Positions 2,266 to 33,346 are shown, counted from the first letter of the stretch. The stretch is 38,184 nt of DNA from Candidatus Daviesbacteria bacterium (GCA_016176335.1 JACOXI010000003.1:72920-111103), one strand, 5' to 3'. The notes: generated by a model not told the origin, from the letters alone. Translations and numbers: made by a program.

Positions 2266-2339
2266 GGAGGAATATTAGCACAATTTAGCAGATTTTGGTA
2301 CCCGGCGGGACTTTTTAATGAAATCATCTTATAAGTTTT

Positions 2340-2386
2340 CCAAGTACCAAATTACAAGATTTCCAAACAATCATCAGACTCCAAAT
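2340..2386. repeat. Degenerate 7-mer tandem repeat arm downstream of four-helix-bundle gene 1
   Basis: ccaagta ccaaatt acaagat ttccaaa caat; inverted relative to 2751-2791. Confidence 0.75.
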
Positions 2387-2387
2387 T

Positions 2388-2750
2388 CTAAAGAGACTTA
2401 TTTATCATAGAGGAAAATATCTTAATGAATTCTGTGGATTCCAAAAGTTTTGGGTCAATTTCTCCTTTTAAATCTGGATTATTATGCAGAATTAATTCTA
2501 ACCAATACCTTGTTTCTTTAGCTTCCTTTCTGCATATCCTAACTCTCATATAAAAATCTTTTTTACCAAGCGCTTCATTTGCCTCTCTATAATTCGCTCC
2601 AACTGAACCTGAAGATCTCACTACTTGACTAATTAATTCGAAGTTAACTGAATTTTTGGGGAGTTTTTTGACAAGATCAATTATTTTCTTAGCAAAGTTT
2701 AGTGTTCTGTCTTCAAGATCAAATTTTCTATCTATTTGATTATTGGGCAT
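2388..2750 (-). CDS. Four helix bundle protein (23S rRNA IVP / bAvd-like family)
   Basis: 120 aa with DLEDRT..FA, QVVRSSGSVGANYREA, KEAKETRYWL family motifs. Confidence 0.92.
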   Translation of the reverse strand: MPNNQIDRKFDLEDRTLNFAKKIIDLVKKLPKNSVNFELISQVVRSSGSVGANYREANEALGKKDFYMRVRICRKEAKETRYWLELILHNNPDLKGEIDPKLLESTEFIKIFSSMINKSL

Positions 2751-2791
2751 TATTATTTGTTTGGTACTTGGTTCTTGGATACTTGGTACTT
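2751..2791. repeat. 7-mer tandem repeat arm upstream of four-helix-bundle gene 1
   Basis: tttgtttggtacttggttcttggatacttggtactt; minus strand reads aagtacc aagtatcc aagaacc aagtacc aaac. Confidence 0.8.
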
Positions 2792-3833
2792 ATTGATTGA
2801 AATAATCCAACTTCATGGCTTTTGTAACTTCTTCTAGGGTTTTTTTGGCTTCAGACCTGGCTTTTTGGGTCCCTTCTTTTAGTATTCTATCTACGAGCTC
2901 CGGCTGTTTTTCATACTGCGCTCGTTTTTTTCTAATTGGATCCAGGAAATTATTTAAAATTTTAGTAAGGTACTTTTTTACCTCAATGTCTCCTACTTGG
3001 CCTTTTGTATATTGATCCTTGTAATTTGTAATTTGGGCTTTGTCATTTTCAGAACCAAAAGCATCCAAATAAATAAATACCGGGTTTCCTTCCACTGTCC
3101 CGGGATCTGTTGAATGAATTCTTTTTGGATCTGTGTACATACTCATGACTTTCTTCTCCACTTCATCAGGAGAATCTGTTAAAAAAATGGCATTCCCTAA
3201 AGATTTACCCATCTTTGATTGACCATCTGTACCCGGCAAAGTCGGCACCTCCCCTATTAAGGGTTCGGGCAACGGGAAAACTTGTCCATATAAATTATTA
3301 AACTTGATGGCAATATCCCGGGCAAATTCCACATGGGCTTTCTGATCCTTACCAACAGGCACCAGATTGGCCTTGGGCAAAAGGATGTCAGCTGCCATCA
3401 GTACAGGATAGCTGTACAAAGCAAAGGTGTCTTGCTCCCCTTGATCCAACTTCTCTTTTAAAGCCGGTTGCCTTTCCAATACTGCCCTGGGGGTGAGAAT
3501 CCCCAAAAAATAAGCCAGCTCGGTTGTTTCCGGCACTTGTGATTGCAGTACAAAAGTGGCTTTATTGGGATCTAAACCAACCGATAAATATCCCAGCATC
3601 AGACCGCGGATGTTTTGCCCCAGATCCCCGGTTTTATCAAAATGGGTAGTCAGAGCATGCAGATCCGCTATGAGGATATACGTCTCATATTCATCCTGTA
3701 ACTTGACTCGATTCTTGAGTGAACCAATATAATTTCCCAAATGGAAACTATCATAGGTGGGCCTATCCCCAGTGAGAATGCGTTTTCTGGCATTCTCACC
3801 CTGAGCTTGTCGAAGGGTCAAAATCCTTTTCAT
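2790..3833 (-). CDS. trpS: Tryptophanyl-tRNA synthetase (likely start MKRILT at 3833)
   Basis: ILTGDRPT, HIGH-like HLGN, YPVLMAADIL, VPVGKDQ, KMSKS-like KMGKS. Confidence 0.97.
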   Translation of the reverse strand: MKRILTLRQAQGENARKRILTGDRPTYDSFHLGNYIGSLKNRVKLQDEYETYILIADLHALTTHFDKTGDLGQNIRGLMLGYLSVGLDPNKATFVLQSQVPETTELAYFLGILTPRAVLERQPALKEKLDQGEQDTFALYSYPVLMAADILLPKANLVPVGKDQKAHVEFARDIAIKFNNLYGQVFPLPEPLIGEVPTLPGTDGQSKMGKSLGNAIFLTDSPDEVEKKVMSMYTDPKRIHSTDPGTVEGNPVFIYLDAFGSENDKAQITNYKDQYTKGQVGDIEVKKYLTKILNNFLDPIRKKRAQYEKQPELVDRILKEGTQKARSEAKKTLEEVTKAMKLDYFNQ

Positions 3834-3898
3834 ATTCTTCTTAAGTATTGTATTCCCTCCCAATTCCATACGCAATAATGCTCTTATATTTTCAACTA

Positions 3899-4426
3899 TT
3901 ATCCGGCTATCGGCGCTCTAGGAAATGGTTCCAGACCACTGCTTTGAGCTTGAAACAAAATCTCTTGTCTTCTTTTCGCATCAGGCCGTCTTATAAAACT
4001 AAAACCTGATAAATCCAAGTCTACTTCAACTCCAATTAACAGTTGTCTTAATTCTAACACCCGAGCATAACCTGTTAAAATACTCTGCATCTTAAATCGT
4101 TCAGCATTCTCAGCATCGAATTCTCGATATTCCACTCGGCGATGCATCTCATATGCTATTTCCCTAATTCTACCTTTTAGATCATACGATCTATAATAGG
4201 CTCCAAAAATCCTATCATGCATGAATGTGAGACTGATGCCGAAGGTAGGACTTACTATATCATAGCAATTTTCCACACATCGCGACGGCATTACCTCCAC
4301 TCTAGCTACCCCATCCATTCTTGCGTGTTCTACAAACTCAGCAATAGTCATTCTATCAATTGCTTTAAATTGTTTAGCTATCGATCGAACTATCCCCCCT
4401 AAACCACTATTAACTATTTCTTTCAT
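3899..4426 (-). CDS. Hypothetical protein (likely start MKEIV at 4426)
   Basis: Long ORF with a strong SD (AAGGAGGTGA) just before ATG 4426, overlapping the racemase 3' end. No recognised motif. Confidence 0.7.
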   Translation of the reverse strand: MKEIVNSGLGGIVRSIAKQFKAIDRMTIAEFVEHARMDGVARVEVMPSRCVENCYDIVSPTFGISLTFMHDRIFGAYYRSYDLKGRIREIAYEMHRRVEYREFDAENAERFKMQSILTGYARVLELRQLLIGVEVDLDLSGFSFIRRPDAKRRQEILFQAQSSGLEPFPRAPIAG

Positions 4427-5150
4427 TTCTATCACCTCCTTGCATAATGTTGTTTTTGAATTGACCATAGTAAGTTTGGAGTAGTTTTTTTGCCAAGACT
4501 TCTACTGAATTGTAAACGGGTAATGTGTAATTTTTTGAGAAAACTAACGGCAATTCCGTACAACCGAGAATAATTGCCTCTGCTCCGCTTACCTTTAAAT
4601 TATCTGCGATTTTTTTGAGACACTCCCTGTCACTTGTTAATATCTTCCCTTTTATTACATTGCGTATAATTCTCGCCAGAATTGCTATTTGTCCACTGGA
4701 AGGTATTACTGTTGATATTCCATGTTTACTAAGGGCTATTTGATATAAACCATATTTTATGGTTAATGGAGTTCCCATAAGCCCCACTTTCTTAATACCG
4801 TCTCCAGAGACTTGCTTTACTGTCTCATCTATCATAGAGACAAAGGGGATCTTTGAAATCATCTGCAATTGTGGAAGTAAAATATGGGCAGTATTACAAG
4901 CAATTGATATACAAGAAGCATTCCTTATTAGCTTCACTCTTTGTTTTAGCATGTTTAATGCCTTATTGCGGCTTCTGTCGTTTGAAATAAAATCTGGCAC
5001 AGGAACTGAATATAGAACAATTTCCGGAAATTCGTCGTTGTTTTTAGCTCCGAATTGACTAATTGCTAAATCAATTAGCAATTTATACAAATAGACAGAC
5101 GCTTCAGGGCCCATTCCTCCTAGAATATAAAGTGCTTTTTTATGTTTCAT
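4410..5150 (-). CDS. PLP-independent aspartate/glutamate racemase family protein
   Basis: ILGGMGPEAS, two catalytic Cys motifs IACNTAH and ILGCTELP. Confidence 0.93.
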   Translation of the reverse strand: MKHKKALYILGGMGPEASVYLYKLLIDLAISQFGAKNNDEFPEIVLYSVPVPDFISNDRSRNKALNMLKQRVKLIRNASCISIACNTAHILLPQLQMISKIPFVSMIDETVKQVSGDGIKKVGLMGTPLTIKYGLYQIALSKHGISTVIPSSGQIAILARIIRNVIKGKILTSDRECLKKIADNLKVSGAEAIILGCTELPLVFSKNYTLPVYNSVEVLAKKLLQTYYGQFKNNIMQGGDRNERNS

Positions 5151-6244
5151 ATTCTATCCTCCAGGAATTGCTGTAAATCCCCTCTAATAGAGCTGAGCTT
5201 TTGAAGATAATCTAAATCATACTTGGCAGCTGCACCTATCTTATACGGATCCAACTTATCTGTCATACTCACGTCACCATCTGAAGCCATATAATAAGGA
5301 GGCACTTGATGTCTGGTAAAAAACTGGAATGTTAAGACTTCTCGATATCTTGCTGGTAAATATGGGTTAATTCCATGACGAAATCTATAAAAAAATCTCT
5401 CTTGTCGTCCTCCTATACTAACTATGGTTTTAGGATCTACCATAGTTGGCTGACCTTCCAAAATAGGGGCAAATGCTCCTGGTAAAGCAATGTCGTGCAC
5501 TAACAAATGCGCTGAACCATAATAAACACCTGTACCATTCCCATAAGCTTTGTTTGCCAAAGCGTGACGGGTTTGATCAGATATTACTTGATCTACTAAA
5601 GAAGATATTTCTGCCAGTTCGTCTCCTAATACGGTTCCTGCGCCTACTTGAGTGTCCCTCAACATTAATACATGGTTTTCTAATACTGGGAAAAAGGCCT
5701 CAATATAATGTCTAGCTAACTCTGCAAACTTAGTAGATTCTGCTGTTACCCGTTCAAAGTCAAGATGGTGATTGGCAGCAGCAGAAATATGATCTGCAAA
5801 AATCATCTGCAATTGAGGAACAGCTACTCCAACCTCTTTAAGGTACTCCATATATACTAAAGCTGGTAATAATCCACTCAAAGCTCGTAAAGGTAATTGA
5901 TTTGTACCTCCGTTTACTACTCTAATAACAGTTGGCGGGTCTTGAGGTTCTAATAATGCTGTTTGCATGGCAATCTTGGTAATATTGCCGAAATCCTCTC
6001 CTCCCATAGCTTCAATATATGCTGCGTTCCTTAAGTTTCTATTACCAGAAAAGAGCATGGCATCTAAAACTTTAGGAAATCTCACGTTTAACCTAGCGGC
6101 TTCGACTTCTACGCTTTGAGGTTCATAAGGATATGGAGGTAAAAAAGGAGCGAACTGCCGGAATTTTACTACCTTTCCGTCAAACTCTCCTCCTACTACA
6201 GGGATGGTATTATTATCTAAGGCTGCTCTAACTCTACCAAGCAC
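5147..6244 (-). CDS. Hypothetical protein, possible class Ic aaRS-like (HUP/Rossmann) fold
   Basis: 365 aa ORF translationally coupled (ATGA overlap) to the racemase. Motif order MIFADH / YYGSAHLLVHDI / VSIGGRQE parallels TrpRS ILIADLH / YPVLMAADI / VPVGKDQ. The fold call is inference. Confidence 0.6.
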   Translation of the reverse strand: MLGRVRAALDNNTIPVVGGEFDGKVVKFRQFAPFLPPYPYEPQSVEVEAARLNVRFPKVLDAMLFSGNRNLRNAAYIEAMGGEDFGNITKIAMQTALLEPQDPPTVIRVVNGGTNQLPLRALSGLLPALVYMEYLKEVGVAVPQLQMIFADHISAAANHHLDFERVTAESTKFAELARHYIEAFFPVLENHVLMLRDTQVGAGTVLGDELAEISSLVDQVISDQTRHALANKAYGNGTGVYYGSAHLLVHDIALPGAFAPILEGQPTMVDPKTIVSIGGRQERFFYRFRHGINPYLPARYREVLTFQFFTRHQVPPYYMASDGDVSMTDKLDPYKIGAAAKYDLDYLQKLSSIRGDLQQFLEDRI

Positions 6245-6356
6245 ACCTTTTCCGTAATTAGAACCAAACTAGCCCCTGGTCCTCGCAAGAAGACCCAGAG
6301 GTCCGTTCGTTTGTATTTGTTCCACTTATTCTTTCCATATTTTTATTCTTTTTTAA

Positions 6357-6611
6357 TTAGACTGCTTTAAATCTCCCTTTTTGTAGCTCTTTTGAGCCAC
6401 GAGTTACCGTGGCAATACCTACTCTTAATTTTTCAGCAATTCGATGCTGAGGAAGACCTTTCTTAAGCATTTTAACAATACTTAATCTAGTTGGTATTTC
6501 TTCCAATTCTTTTGGAGTCAAAATCCCCAAAAGAAAATCCTCCATCTGATCTCTTGCTTTAATGGTTAGCAATAAATCAATTAGCTCATTTAATTGTTTA
6601 TTTCTAAGCAT
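6357..6611 (-). CDS. trpR: Trp operon repressor family protein
   Basis: LTPKELEEIPTRLSIVKML...PQHRIAEKLRVGIATVTRGSKEL, the TrpR HTH signature. Confidence 0.92.
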   Translation of the reverse strand: MLRNKQLNELIDLLLTIKARDQMEDFLLGILTPKELEEIPTRLSIVKMLKKGLPQHRIAEKLRVGIATVTRGSKELQKGRFKAV

Positions 6612-6621
6612 TAGATATACT

Positions 6622-6650
6622 ATTATACTAGTATGCTAGTACTTTGTCAA
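6622..6650 (-). promoter_or_regulatory. Consensus sigma70 promoter with overlapping TrpR-type operator
   Basis: Minus strand TTGACA (6650-6645), 17 nt spacer, TATAAT (6627-6622). Palindrome GTACTAGCATACTAGTAT (6642-6625) matches the ACTAG-N4-CTAGT trp operator pattern. Confidence 0.88.
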
Positions 6651-6695
6651 GTATCATTTGAGGAGATACTTCGAGTTCCTGAAAGGTAAACCAAT

Positions 6696-7994
6696 TTATA
6701 CTATCCTGTGTTTCTCCCGTAATTCTTCGGCAACTGTGACCATTCTATCTAACACTGCAGCTCGAGTATCCACTTGATAAATCTCTGGGGGGAAAAGCAC
6801 CTGTAAAACAGGCAGGGATCGCCTTAACTCATATAAATCATGCGCCCTACCCGGATAAATACCGGTACCAGAATCTCTAGTACCTACCTCATATTCAGAG
6901 TTTAAATAACCCAGACAGGTGTAAAAAATTAATTCCAAAGGCACAGAGATATCCCTTAACTTAAGTTGTAGGCGGGTGAAGCTGGATGCTTCTGATTGAC
7001 CCCGACCCCGGTCAACATGGTGGTCCTCCATGATTTCTTCCACGCCACTGGGGTGAGACTGTAAAACTGTAGTCACTCTTTGTACCAACTCCTTTCTTTC
7101 ATTCCCCCCTCCCATCGCTACAAACATAATTCCCAAACTATCTTGCACATAGGAAAGCGGGTCAATCACTCCCCCATTATCCACTGCCTTAGCAAGTGCT
7201 TTTAAGATTGAAGCAGCATCACTCTTCTTTCTGGGATTGGTATAAACCAAAGAGTCTGTCTCTCCGATACGCCTTAGGGAGAAAGGGTGTCTTTTTAAAT
7301 GGCAGCCTTCCGGCAGGGCTCCGCAGATCTCTCTGGCCTGCTCTCTGGCATATTGTCTCGCCGTCACCAAAACCTGCACGGCAGAGTTTGTCCCGTCTTC
7401 GTGTAATGCATAGACATCAAAATCTTCCCCGTCACCAATTCTCCCTCCGTATAGCTCCCCATTAAGCAGCATTTGCACTCGTGATAACTCGGTACGCAAG
7501 CGACCATTTAATGTCCTGGAATTAAATGAGGCTGAAATATGAGACAAGAGTATATGTCTTTGTAATTCAAATTTTAATGTAGGGTTAATACCATCATCAG
7601 GATAAGCCAGTAGTCTCAACAGGTCTGCGGGGCTTTCCGAATACAGACTGACCTCGTTTTTCAAACCCAGCTCATGTCTGTAAGCAGGCAGTGCCCTGCC
7701 CAGTACAGAATCAATTACTTCTGCGGCATGTCTTTGTTGTCTTAGATAAAAATCCTGCGGGTCCATATTTTCTGGTAAGCCATATGCCCGCCTAATAAAC
7801 CCGTAGAAGTACCTGTCAGTAGCTGTGCTAAGTTGGGCGTGCGGCTCTAGTCCTTGTCTTGTTACATTGAAGAAGCTCAAACCTTCTCTTCCGTAGGCTC
7901 TACCTAATAAACCGGTTATTCGACGATCTGCTGCTGTGGATCGTCCGGTTGGTTGAAACATTTCTATAGTGATTCGTGGTAATTTTCTCTCCAT
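6696..7994 (-). CDS. Divergent RelA/SpoT-like nucleotidyltransferase-domain protein
   Basis: C-terminal half has RKKSDAASILK, QDSLGIMFV, LELIF and AHDLYE in the order of the RelA/SpoT synthetase motifs. Confidence 0.6.
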   Translation of the reverse strand: MERKLPRITIEMFQPTGRSTAADRRITGLLGRAYGREGLSFFNVTRQGLEPHAQLSTATDRYFYGFIRRAYGLPENMDPQDFYLRQQRHAAEVIDSVLGRALPAYRHELGLKNEVSLYSESPADLLRLLAYPDDGINPTLKFELQRHILLSHISASFNSRTLNGRLRTELSRVQMLLNGELYGGRIGDGEDFDVYALHEDGTNSAVQVLVTARQYAREQAREICGALPEGCHLKRHPFSLRRIGETDSLVYTNPRKKSDAASILKALAKAVDNGGVIDPLSYVQDSLGIMFVAMGGGNERKELVQRVTTVLQSHPSGVEEIMEDHHVDRGRGQSEASSFTRLQLKLRDISVPLELIFYTCLGYLNSEYEVGTRDSGTGIYPGRAHDLYELRRSLPVLQVLFPPEIYQVDTRAAVLDRMVTVAEELREKHRIV

Positions 7995-8005
7995 AATTCC
8001 TCATT

Positions 8006-8035
8006 AAAAAACAAAAATACCCCAAAGGGATATTT
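8006..8035 (-). terminator. Intrinsic-terminator-like hairpin upstream of the RelA/SpoT-like gene
   Basis: Minus strand AAATATCCC-TTT-GGGGTATTT followed by TTGTTTTTT. Confidence 0.55.
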
Positions 8036-8103
8036 CACTTGCTGTCAAGATTATATCTTACTATGGGGTAGCAGAAAAGTCAACCCTTCAATTAAATTCA
8101 GGA

Positions 8104-32241: not shown

Positions 32242-32499
32242 CTCCTCGACCTGGATTCGAACCAGGAACCTTCTCGTTACTTTAATGGACTATCTCATCA
32301 CCATGAATCTGGATGATCTTTAGGTGGTGGGCGCTATTGGTGTACTCACCTAGTCTCTGCACCTTGAACGCACCGTATGGTACATCCCTTGGCTCAGGGT
32401 TATCTTAAGACGTTCCCTGAATTCACCCACTTATCATTCTAATGTTTCCATTAGAAGCTGCTAACACAGCGAGCCGCTCTACCGTTGAGCTATCGAGGA
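32242..32499 (-). tRNA. tRNA-Asn(GTT) interrupted by a group I intron (exons 32499-32466 and 32279-32242)
   Basis: Spliced product TCCTCGA...CTCG-CT-GT/T-AA-CGAG...GGTTCGAATCC...TCGAGGA-G. Confidence 0.9.
32280..32465 (-). ncRNA. Compact group I intron, 186 nt, at anticodon position 35/36
   Basis: P1 GCUGU-GUUA-GCAGC with U-G pair; AAUUCAGGGAA / CCCUGAGCC (P4/P5); GCAGAGACUA / AUAGUCC (P7); omega-G. Confidence 0.88.
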
Positions 32500-32554: not shown

Positions 32555-33346
32555 TTATGTATGCAGCGGTTTTAATTTTGCAGGAGTAGACTCACGGATC
32601 AAGGCTCTTGCTAAAGCGACCATTGGATCTATCAAATGCACACCTTGATATTTTGACTCTGGTAAGGCTAGCGGTATTTCTGTACACCCTAAAATAATTG
32701 CATCTACACCTTGATCGTAAAGTATTTCAGTATATCTTAGAAAATTATCTCGGGCTCTTACTGTCACAGGGCTAACTGCTTTAATACCCCACTCAGGATT
32801 GTAAATTGAATCATGAAGTTCATCTTGTAACTTCTGTGGCACTTGTAATAAGCGGTATCCCAGAGGAGTAAGTATTTGCTCATAAACACCAACTTTTCTA
32901 GTACCTGTTGTAGACATTAAACCAATGTTTTGAGCGTTTGGCAACATCTCTTTAATTAAACCGGCTGTTTCTTCAAGCATATGCACGACTTGCACACATA
33001 CACTCTTTTCTTTTAGCATTCGGGTGAAATCTTTCCAAATTCTTGGAGCATGGAAAGTGTTACAAGGCACACCAGCCACCACTTCTTCCGCACCTGCAGC
33101 TTTAGCAGCAGCAGCTATGGCTTGCATGACTAAAATCATGGCTTCGGCCGGGTCTTCTTTAATTTCTCCTAATAAAAATTTAGTCCTGTCGGGAATTTGA
33201 GAAGAGTGGGAAATATGAACTACCGATAAATGTCCTTGATCAGTTCTACTTAAAGTATGCTGAATAATTAGCTCATGAAGCTTAACGCCTGCCATTGGAC
33301 CAACTCCACCACCAATTCCTATTACTTTCTCTACCATATTGCTCAT
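32555..33346 (-). CDS. Aspartate/glutamate racemase family protein (second paralog)
   Basis: GGGVGPMAG, IPDRT, VPCNTFH, ILGCTEIP. Confidence 0.92.
   Translation of the reverse strand: MSNMVEKVIGIGGGVGPMAGVKLHELIIQHTLSRTDQGHLSVVHISHSSQIPDRTKFLLGEIKEDPAEAMILVMQAIAAAAKAAGAEEVVAGVPCNTFHAPRIWKDFTRMLKEKSVCVQVVHMLEETAGLIKEMLPNAQNIGLMSTTGTRKVGVYEQILTPLGYRLLQVPQKLQDELHDSIYNPEWGIKAVSPVTVRARDNFLRYTEILYDQGVDAIILGCTEIPLALPESKYQGVHLIDPMVALARALIRESTPAKLKPLHT

Follow-up and report, generated by a model that had tools for sequence, protein, structure and literature searches.

The stretch of DNA analyzed here (hereafter, the window) comprises 38,184 nucleotides (nt) from Candidatus Daviesbacteria bacterium, an ultra-small groundwater bacterium of the Candidate Phyla Radiation (CPR)/Patescibacteria with a 925 kb genome that is 96.9% complete; all positions are counted along the whole window. 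On its minus strand, trpR, the gene of the tryptophan (Trp) repressor, is followed by a gene for what we denote the pseudo-synthetase, a protein that has the predicted fold of tyrosyl- and tryptophanyl-tRNA synthetases (TyrRS and TrpRS) but lacks their ATP motifs, and then by genes for a racemase, a small orphan protein and TrpRS (trpS). Near its 5' end, the pseudo-synthetase gene changes reading frame, and we propose, with a probability of about 0.55, that this break is a programmed +1 frameshift site by which Trp-tRNA is sensed and a module required during Trp starvation is switched. Gene order, fold, synteny, frame break and the conserved motif at the break are established. On the broader proposition, we would place even odds: that the site represents the first programmed +1 frameshift in nature that senses an amino acid, a Trp codon replacing the stop codon of prfB, that it gates a starvation operon and is interchangeable with a T-box in sister lineages, and that the gated protein founds a new family of TrpRS-like proteins without ATP motifs, which, in concert with a dedicated racemase, act on Trp or tRNA(Trp).

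The original prediction placed here a 365-amino-acid (aa) orphan encoded at 5147-6244. The gene is real, and it is the start that had to be replaced. The alignment of homologues contains a conserved N-terminal segment, Y(G/S)(K/R)K-LLGR, which in the window reads GSNYGKGVLGR and is coded upstream of GTG 6244, in a frame closed by UAG; GTG 6244 is very probably not the true start. When the segment is compared with its counterpart in the related locus L001, which encodes a protein 62% identical, the DNA differences are, by reading, mostly synonymous in the +1 frame. Very probably, judging from the sequence, the gene starts at ATG 6338, with a +1 frame change at 6269-6264. The open reading frame (ORF) that begins at this ATG (6258..6338, minus strand; the 0 frame) has 26 codons and ends in CAG GGG CUA GUU UGG UUC UAA, with the UAA at 6260-6258, so that, without a frameshift, it yields the 26-aa product MERISGTNTNERTSGSSCEDQGLVWF. 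Within this ORF lies a hairpin (6273..6301, minus strand; minimum free energy, MFE, -18.4 kcal/mol, z -2.63), which encodes the residues …ERTSGSSCEDQGLV… of the 0-frame product and the 3' strand of which is a Shine-Dalgarno (SD)-like CCAGGGG (AGGGG at 6277-6273). The proposed +1 shift site, GUU_UGG (6264..6269, minus strand), follows 3 nt 3' of the SD-like element; UAG shuts the +1 frame just upstream of the site, and UAA shuts the 0 frame two codons downstream. The +1-frame body of the pseudo-synthetase spans 372 codons (5147..6265, minus strand) and, together with 24 codons of the 0 frame, gives a 396-aa product that, with GUUU read as a single step, runs through the break as MERISGTNTNERTSGSSCEDQGLVGSNYGKGVLGR... 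The length of its N-terminal part fits that of the unbroken homologues, which have 8-29 residues ahead of the conserved Tyr.

The site is exceptional in its own genome. Among 6,402 NTT_TGG sites, 6 have the same frame geometry, and only the window site has the SD-like element as well; two other genomic matches to AGGRG-N3-GTTTGG are read in other frames, and the cassette is single-copy rather than a dispersed repeat. GGAGG sites precede the racemase gene and the gene for the 175-aa small orphan, which implies that the organism uses SD pairing. Logan contigs from runs of two studies reproduce positions 5900-6700 without a difference, and the cassette in them has no indel.

We then find the same arrangement in other loci. 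Among 22 upstream regions of related loci (numbered L001 and so on), CAGGRG-N3-GUU-UGG-Y is present in five, namely, the window, L001, L015, L016 and L018, the proteins of which are 35-62% identical. In all five, CAGG.G...GTTTGG is invariant, AGGGG or AGGAG stands 3 nt from the shift codon, and the SD-like strand forms the end of a hairpin (-16.3 to -19.0 kcal/mol, z -2.1 to -3.3). The base after UGG is C in four of the five; the start codon is located 23 codons ahead of GUU in four, and 24 codons ahead in L016; and the 0-frame stop falls 2, 2, 2 and 3 codons past UGG in four. The shift window spans three codons in the window, L001 and L015, and GUU UGG is the only conserved part of it. In L018, the 0 frame begins with a GTG that overlaps the end of an upstream racemase gene and has a GGAG site.

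Programmed +1 frameshifts are known to sense release factor 2 (RF2) and, in eukaryotes, polyamines. The cassette closely resembles the RF2 site, that of prfB, which is given as AGGGGG, 3 nt, CTTT, TGA and C (PMC12421855): both have an SD-like AGGGG(G), a 3-nt gap, a slippery NUU_U codon, a slow A-site codon that starts with UG and, usually, C as the next base, and in both, the reading of the functional protein moves on in the +1 frame some 25 codons from the start, the 0 frame ending soon (L016 excepted). The main difference concerns the A-site codon, which is UGG in all five loci rather than the UGA stop, so that Trp-tRNA(Trp) instead of RF2 would be sensed. In addition, the P site contains GUU_U in all five rather than CUU_U, the same NUU_U shape with another tRNA; a conserved hairpin supplies the SD-like element as its 3' strand; and the gene is unrelated to translation termination. 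An upstream refolding hairpin reportedly stimulates +1 shifting, as was confirmed in a 70S system (PMC6321510). The slowly decoded sense codon in the A site is shared with hungry-codon +1 shifting, as in Gallant's work on E. coli and in CUU_AGG_C of yeast Ty1 (PMC5009743), but Ty1 depends on a constitutively rare tRNA and the hungry-codon cases in E. coli are errors or constructs, unlike the cassette proposed here. In its passage on starvation-specific trans-frame proteins, a 2016 review of recoding states that 'no examples are known' (PMC5009743), and our literature search for a frameshift that senses Trp or another amino acid found no later example. If the proposal is correct, the cassette, about 100 nt in size, would be a case of hungry-codon frameshifting that makes a starvation-specific trans-frame protein.

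The relatives in which the gene is unbroken present another facet of the same story. In the region upstream of the pseudo-synthetase gene, in the same place as the cassette, they carry a T-box: all 6 loci that were tested contain the core GGTGGCA[AC]C, with a terminator after the core and, before it, a short stem with a loop that contains UGG-A or UGG-G. The UGG loop of stem I was read by eye in L002, L004, L008, L014 and L019 and was confirmed by folding in L002, L008 and L019. At the gathering score, the Rfam T-box model (RF00230) matched none of 15 loci, where only tRNAs were recovered; L002 scores 20.3 bits against a gathering score of 93, the T-box core itself aligning well. In the window, Rfam detects no T-box. 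One locus with a T-box (L004) and one with the cassette (L015) are syntenic, with common flanking genes. If the proposal holds, a T-box riboswitch and a frameshift site that respond to the same signal can substitute for each other in evolution. The combination of a T-box with a UGG specifier in the relatives and CTAG boxes 8 bp apart over the -10 element recalls the control of trp genes by T-box riboswitches (short stem-I type) and by TrpR; unlike in the usual TrpR control, the TrpR of the window governs no biosynthetic genes.

A second type of leader was noticed between trpR and the pseudo-synthetase gene in L005 (1240-1340), L022 (420-510), L016 (4700-4830), L003 (20-120) and L023 (100-200). 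It consists of UGGCAnnnCC, a helix and then a terminator (AACCUCUC..GAGAGGUUUUUUU), the 5' arm of which can instead pair with the first helix. No Rfam family matches it; it is probably another sensor of Trp or tRNA-Trp.

The features of the cassette suggest that ribosomes cross the break by +1 frameshifting, at a rate set by the supply of Trp-tRNA. Under this scenario, a single TrpR-repressed promoter would transcribe trpR, the pseudo-synthetase gene, the racemase gene, the 175-aa orphan gene and trpS, and the module would read its amino acid twice, TrpR responding to free Trp at the promoter and GUU_UGG to charged tRNA(Trp) on the ribosome. A ribosome that starts at ATG 6338 would reach GUU_UGG after 23 codons, and the hairpin could refold behind it. 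With Trp-tRNA(Trp) plentiful, UGG would be decoded and translation would end two codons on; with Trp-tRNA(Trp) scarce, the ribosome would pause with UGG in the A site, and peptidyl-tRNA(Val) would slip by +1, from GUU to UUU, to yield the 396-aa protein. In the absence of a shift, about 1.1 kb past the UAA at 6260-6258 would stay untranslated, which, given that Rho is encoded in the genome, would be expected to reduce expression of the racemase gene, the 175-aa orphan gene and trpS; after a shift, ongoing translation would support the coupled racemase gene and, via Rho polarity, the distal genes.

A competing explanation of the break, which we consider unlikely, is a leader peptide followed by a restart, whereby the 26-codon ORF would be a separate Trp-containing leader, the hairpin with its U-rich tail would attenuate transcription or cause a pause, and the enzyme would start downstream, in the window at GTG 6244. 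This GTG does have GGAAAAGG upstream, CUAGUUUGGUUCU directly follows the hairpin, terminator-based leaders occupy the same position in relatives, and gene callers set the starts of the close homologues P0002, P0005 and P0006 further downstream. Yet, L001 and L015 have no ATG, GTG or TTG between the +1-frame UAG and the conserved YGKG/YSNK segment, which is nonetheless conserved as protein, and the L001 codon aligned with GTG 6244 is GTC. Furthermore, the tail of the hairpin fails the terminator scan, and a Trp codon located 3' of the hairpin should be unable to control that hairpin in the classical manner. We also considered, and rejected, the possibility that translation starts further upstream in the +1 frame and reads through the UAG: this would be feasible in the window alone (from a GTG), that frame being devoid of start codons in L001 and L015. 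Translational bypass, in which the ribosome would hop about 50 nt from codon 10-12 or so to a matching codon before the conserved Tyr, as in gene 60 of phage T4, appears highly improbable. Compared with the closest unbroken homologues (10 residues before YGKG), the extra stretch in the window is 52 nt, not a multiple of 3, and it holds the hairpin and the SD-like element, but the matching codon pairs that exist, such as AAC10/AAU in the window and UUU12/UUU in L018, carry no weight given that most candidate landing codons have such pairs, no candidate take-off codon precedes a stop or a rare codon, and the invariant GUUUGG would be left unexplained. A decaying gene or an assembly error, brought to mind by a single break near the 5' end that resembles an indel error, can be practically dismissed because the same +1 break and motif recur in five independent assemblies that encode divergent proteins, the independent contigs match the window cassette with 0 differences, and the gene is otherwise intact and conserved.

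The protein that would be gated by the frameshift is a member of a rare family that has no name in Pfam. The 365-aa orphan matches no Pfam or NCBIfam family, PF00579 included; a search of 5.8 billion proteins yielded 25 relatives, none with a Pfam domain. An exhaustive profile search recovered 418 representative clusters (50% identity) at E <= 1e-3, 95 of them at E <= 1e-30, and 78 distant relatives include none with a meaningful Pfam family. The family occurs in 3 of 301 genomes of the class, 6 of 401 genomes of the phylum sample and 0 of 19 genomes of the same family, a spread too sparse for a comparison by presence and absence. The suspicion that the protein has a class Ic synthetase-like fold is supported by the AlphaFold (AF2) model built with the alignment of relatives (predicted local distance difference test, pLDDT, 91.4; predicted template modeling score, pTM, 0.91): Foldseek against the Protein Data Bank (PDB) gave 105 matches at E <= 1e-3, among the matches listed TrpRS and TyrRS, the best being 3foc (2.6e-7), and the predicted structure combines a Rossmann catalytic fold with a helical C-terminal domain, as in class Ic aminoacyl-tRNA synthetases (aaRS). 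As had also been surmised, HIGH and KMSKS are missing and, in contrast to class Ic aaRS, none of 25 members shows HIGH-, KMSKS- or GxDQ-like motifs at the homologous places, whereas the TrpRS of the window, examined as a control, has HLGN45, KMGKS221 and GKDQ175. The family alignment contains an invariant Ser154. A search of PDB sequences with the family profile gave no meaningful match. The likeness in motif order to the adjacent TrpRS, previously claimed for several motifs, is borne out in part: hhalign of the profile against the window TrpRS aligned the second of these motifs, the helix YGAAHLLVHDI, to YSYPVLMAADIL at a marginal E of 0.026, and this helix only.

Synteny ties this family both to racemases and to Trp genes, as the original prediction required. 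We compared 29 related loci, 5 from genomes and 24 from metagenomes (L009-L011 repeat L002, and L020 repeats L019). The racemase gene adjoins the pseudo-synthetase gene in 25 of the 29; of the four others, two end inside the gene and two have less than 340 nt downstream. trpS is found downstream in 11 of the 29 loci and trpR upstream in 8. Two loci, L004 and L015, contain trpR, the pseudo-synthetase gene and the racemase gene but no trpS, which implies that the pair of pseudo-synthetase and racemase is itself the regulated unit. In the distant branch, L037 has a racemase gene immediately upstream of the homologue; the distant homologue in L035 (3705-8197) has a TrpRS gene on either side (TIGR00233, 208 and 261 bits), the first of which is present in L036 as well. 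These neighbors of the distant branch imply that the entire family is tied to tryptophanyl-tRNA synthesis. In the second TrpRS of L035 (681 aa), a YbaK-type aminoacyl-tRNA editing domain and a C-terminal domain that binds tRNA are fused to the synthetase; this architecture is unusual for a TrpRS and hints that tRNA-Trp is mischarged.

The racemase (4410..5150, minus strand) is a two-Cys, cofactor-independent enzyme of the aspartate-racemase type (PF01177, 1.6e-32; TIGR00035, 7e-47). Its description as an ATGA-coupled Cys-Cys racemase is accurate: the ATG overlaps the stop codon of the upstream gene as ATGA, and Cys85 and Cys197 are invariant in 17 of 17 homologues. The closest solved structures are archaeal aspartate racemases. 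Arg48 of one of these, 1jfl, which we take to help bind the side-chain carboxylate of the substrate, aligns with an invariant Phe54 of the racemase clade, and Lys164 is kept; if Arg48 has this role, the substrate is likely to be non-acidic and perhaps aromatic. A second gene of the Asp/Glu-racemase family is located in the window at about 32603-33310 (minus strand), and a third on contig C3; one of these two is presumably the cell-wall glutamate racemase.

The regulation also bears on what the pair does. The host cannot make Trp: trpB was not found in the whole 96.9%-complete genome, which extends the earlier remark that the window contains no trp biosynthesis genes. Induction under Trp shortage argues for supply, salvage or help with charging rather than for consumption of Trp-tRNA. 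TrpRS charges D-Trp. As a speculative first guess, to which we would give distinctly less than an even chance, the racemase could convert D-Trp to L-Trp, and the pseudo-synthetase, acting for instance as a deacylase or in partnership with the racemase, could bind Trp or (D-)Trp-tRNA(Trp). HisZ, a paralogue of HisRS that is the regulatory subunit of HisG, offers an analogy, being a synthetase paralogue without aminoacylation motifs that is tied to an enzyme of the same amino acid, albeit in another synthetase class. Our literature search for a pairing of pseudo-synthetase and racemase found nothing, and an unnamed family of class Ic look-alikes tied to TrpRS genes and racemases would point to new biology of Trp/D-Trp handling in Trp scavengers.

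The function first envisaged was a different one, that of a transferase dependent on aminoacyl-tRNA, akin to cyclodipeptide synthases (CDPS), which together with the racemase would make a product containing Trp or a D-amino acid. CDPS consist of a single Rossmann domain of about 200-300 aa, in which a catalytic Ser accepts the aminoacyl group. The pseudo-synthetase is longer, its alignment with TyrRS extends past the region shared with CDPS, and it retains the helical C-terminal part, which lies outside the CDPS matches; PF16715 has no match in the protein, in the 78 distant relatives or in the 37 members of alignment A3. Because the genes are on when Trp or Trp-tRNA is scarce, a peptide pathway that consumes Trp is disfavored: all three regulatory devices would switch on at such scarcity, the wrong sign for a consumer of Trp-tRNA. 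We, accordingly, regard a CDPS-like function as improbable. The other fold that had been brought up, PvcA/Dit1, would imply ATP-independent modification of free Trp at its amino group (isonitrile or N-formyl type), which seems less plausible still: PF05141 has no match in the same three sets, the operon contains no gene for a partner oxygenase, and the regulatory sign raises the same problem. Structural matches to CDPS and to PvcA/Dit1 do exist, but those to TyrRS and TrpRS score above them and extend beyond them. Of the Trp-responsive unit in a biosynthetically reduced organism that was initially proposed, the TrpR promoter and the biosynthetic reduction stand, and the peptide pathway is unlikely.

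Several observations weigh against the proposed frameshift and the function attached to it. Once shifted onto UUU, tRNA(Val) would be paired less well than tRNA(Leu) is at the prfB site, and prfB of the host (C5:367227-368255) has no internal stop and hence no classic RF2 frameshift, so that shifting of this kind is not otherwise documented for its ribosome. The motif is confined to five loci, one of which, L016, is ambiguous, with a +1-frame ATG five codons before the site and a 0 frame that stays open for 18 codons; four of the five 0-frame start codons have no clear SD sequence; the alignment of the 0-frame peptides with the N-termini of homologues that have no break is loose; and the tree leaves a single versus a repeated origin of the cassette unsettled. 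In the window, although only there, GTG 6244 could restart translation. No RNA runs are listed among the sequencing runs that hold this stretch of the window. On the functional side, the D-aminoacyl-tRNA deacylase DTD (PF02580) is absent from the genome, from all 21 genomes of the family sample and from all 5 other carriers of the pseudo-synthetase, and being missing in carriers and non-carriers alike, it is uninformative on the function of the pseudo-synthetase.

The cluster is predicted to be transcribed from a sigma-70-type promoter (6622..6650, minus strand) in which TTGACA (6650-6645) and TATAAT (6627-6622) are separated by 17 nt. That this promoter is perfect was correctly recognized: it is the only 12/12 match in 2300-8100. 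TrpR operator-like boxes, GTACTAG-C-ATACTAG-TATAATAG-TAT (6617..6642, minus strand), read from the sequence, place CTAG, CTAG and ATAG at 8-bp spacing across the promoter spacer and the -10 box; thus, the trp-operator palindrome proposed to cover the promoter does overlap it, and the resemblance to the trp operator of E. coli is our assumption. The box ATACTAGTAT is kept in five loci (the window, L001, L004, L005 and L022), in each of them with the same promoter layout before trpR. The trpR product (6357..6611, minus strand; 84 aa) matches PF01371 (6.5e-21) and, under the cut-off of that model, TIGR01321 (1.2e-15); the PF01371 profile, together with the CTAG boxes on the promoter of the gene itself, places it in the Trp repressor family with a predicted operator. 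The ATG of trpR is located 10 nt past the -10 box in the window and 9-10 nt past it in L001, L004, L005 and L022, in each case without a ribosome-binding site; the trpR mRNA is probably leaderless or nearly so, and trpR looks self-repressed. Groundwater metagenome contigs from other organisms match window positions 6360-6650 at 80-95% identity, with a summed depth far above that of the flanks, and the unit of trpR and operator seems to be widespread in those groundwater communities.

All genes in the region 2300-8100 are on the minus strand: ftsH, the gene of a 23S-IVP protein, trpS, the small orphan gene, the racemase gene, the 365-aa orphan gene, trpR and a 432-aa orphan gene. Gene calls and families uphold the predicted order of trpR, the 365-aa orphan, the racemase, the orphan of about 175 aa and trpS behind one promoter, and a scan of the minus strand detected no terminator-like sites between trpR and trpS (6357 to 2790). 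A weaker promoter-like site, 10/12 with TG by consensus match, lies inside the 175-aa orphan gene (4051..4078, minus strand) and could provide basal expression of trpS. The 175-aa orphan itself (3899..4426, minus strand; ATG 4426 with an AGGAGG ribosome-binding site) has no match to Pfam or NCBIfam families and no fold match; in L024, its homologue is encoded between trpR and the pseudo-synthetase gene. trpS (2790..3833, minus strand; true ATG 3833; PF00579, 4.6e-68; TIGR00233, 2.9e-88) encodes the only TrpRS of the genome, which has one tRNA-Trp and a second class Ic gene (PF00579) that we take to be TyrRS. At 3771-3815 (minus strand), trpS contains an in-frame N-terminal insertion of 45 nt, LRQAQGENARKRILT, which repeats KRILT and is absent from L001; its palindromic core of 20-21 nt recurs at three other sites in the genome. 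Just upstream of the trpR promoter, the 432-aa ORF (6696-7994, minus strand) matches no family in Pfam or NCBIfam, lacks a counterpart in all of the loci compared and is unrelated to the other flanking orphans. At the gathering score, the Rfam matches in the window are tRNAs and a group I intron at 32280-32481 (minus strand), which scores 53 bits against a gathering score of 50.

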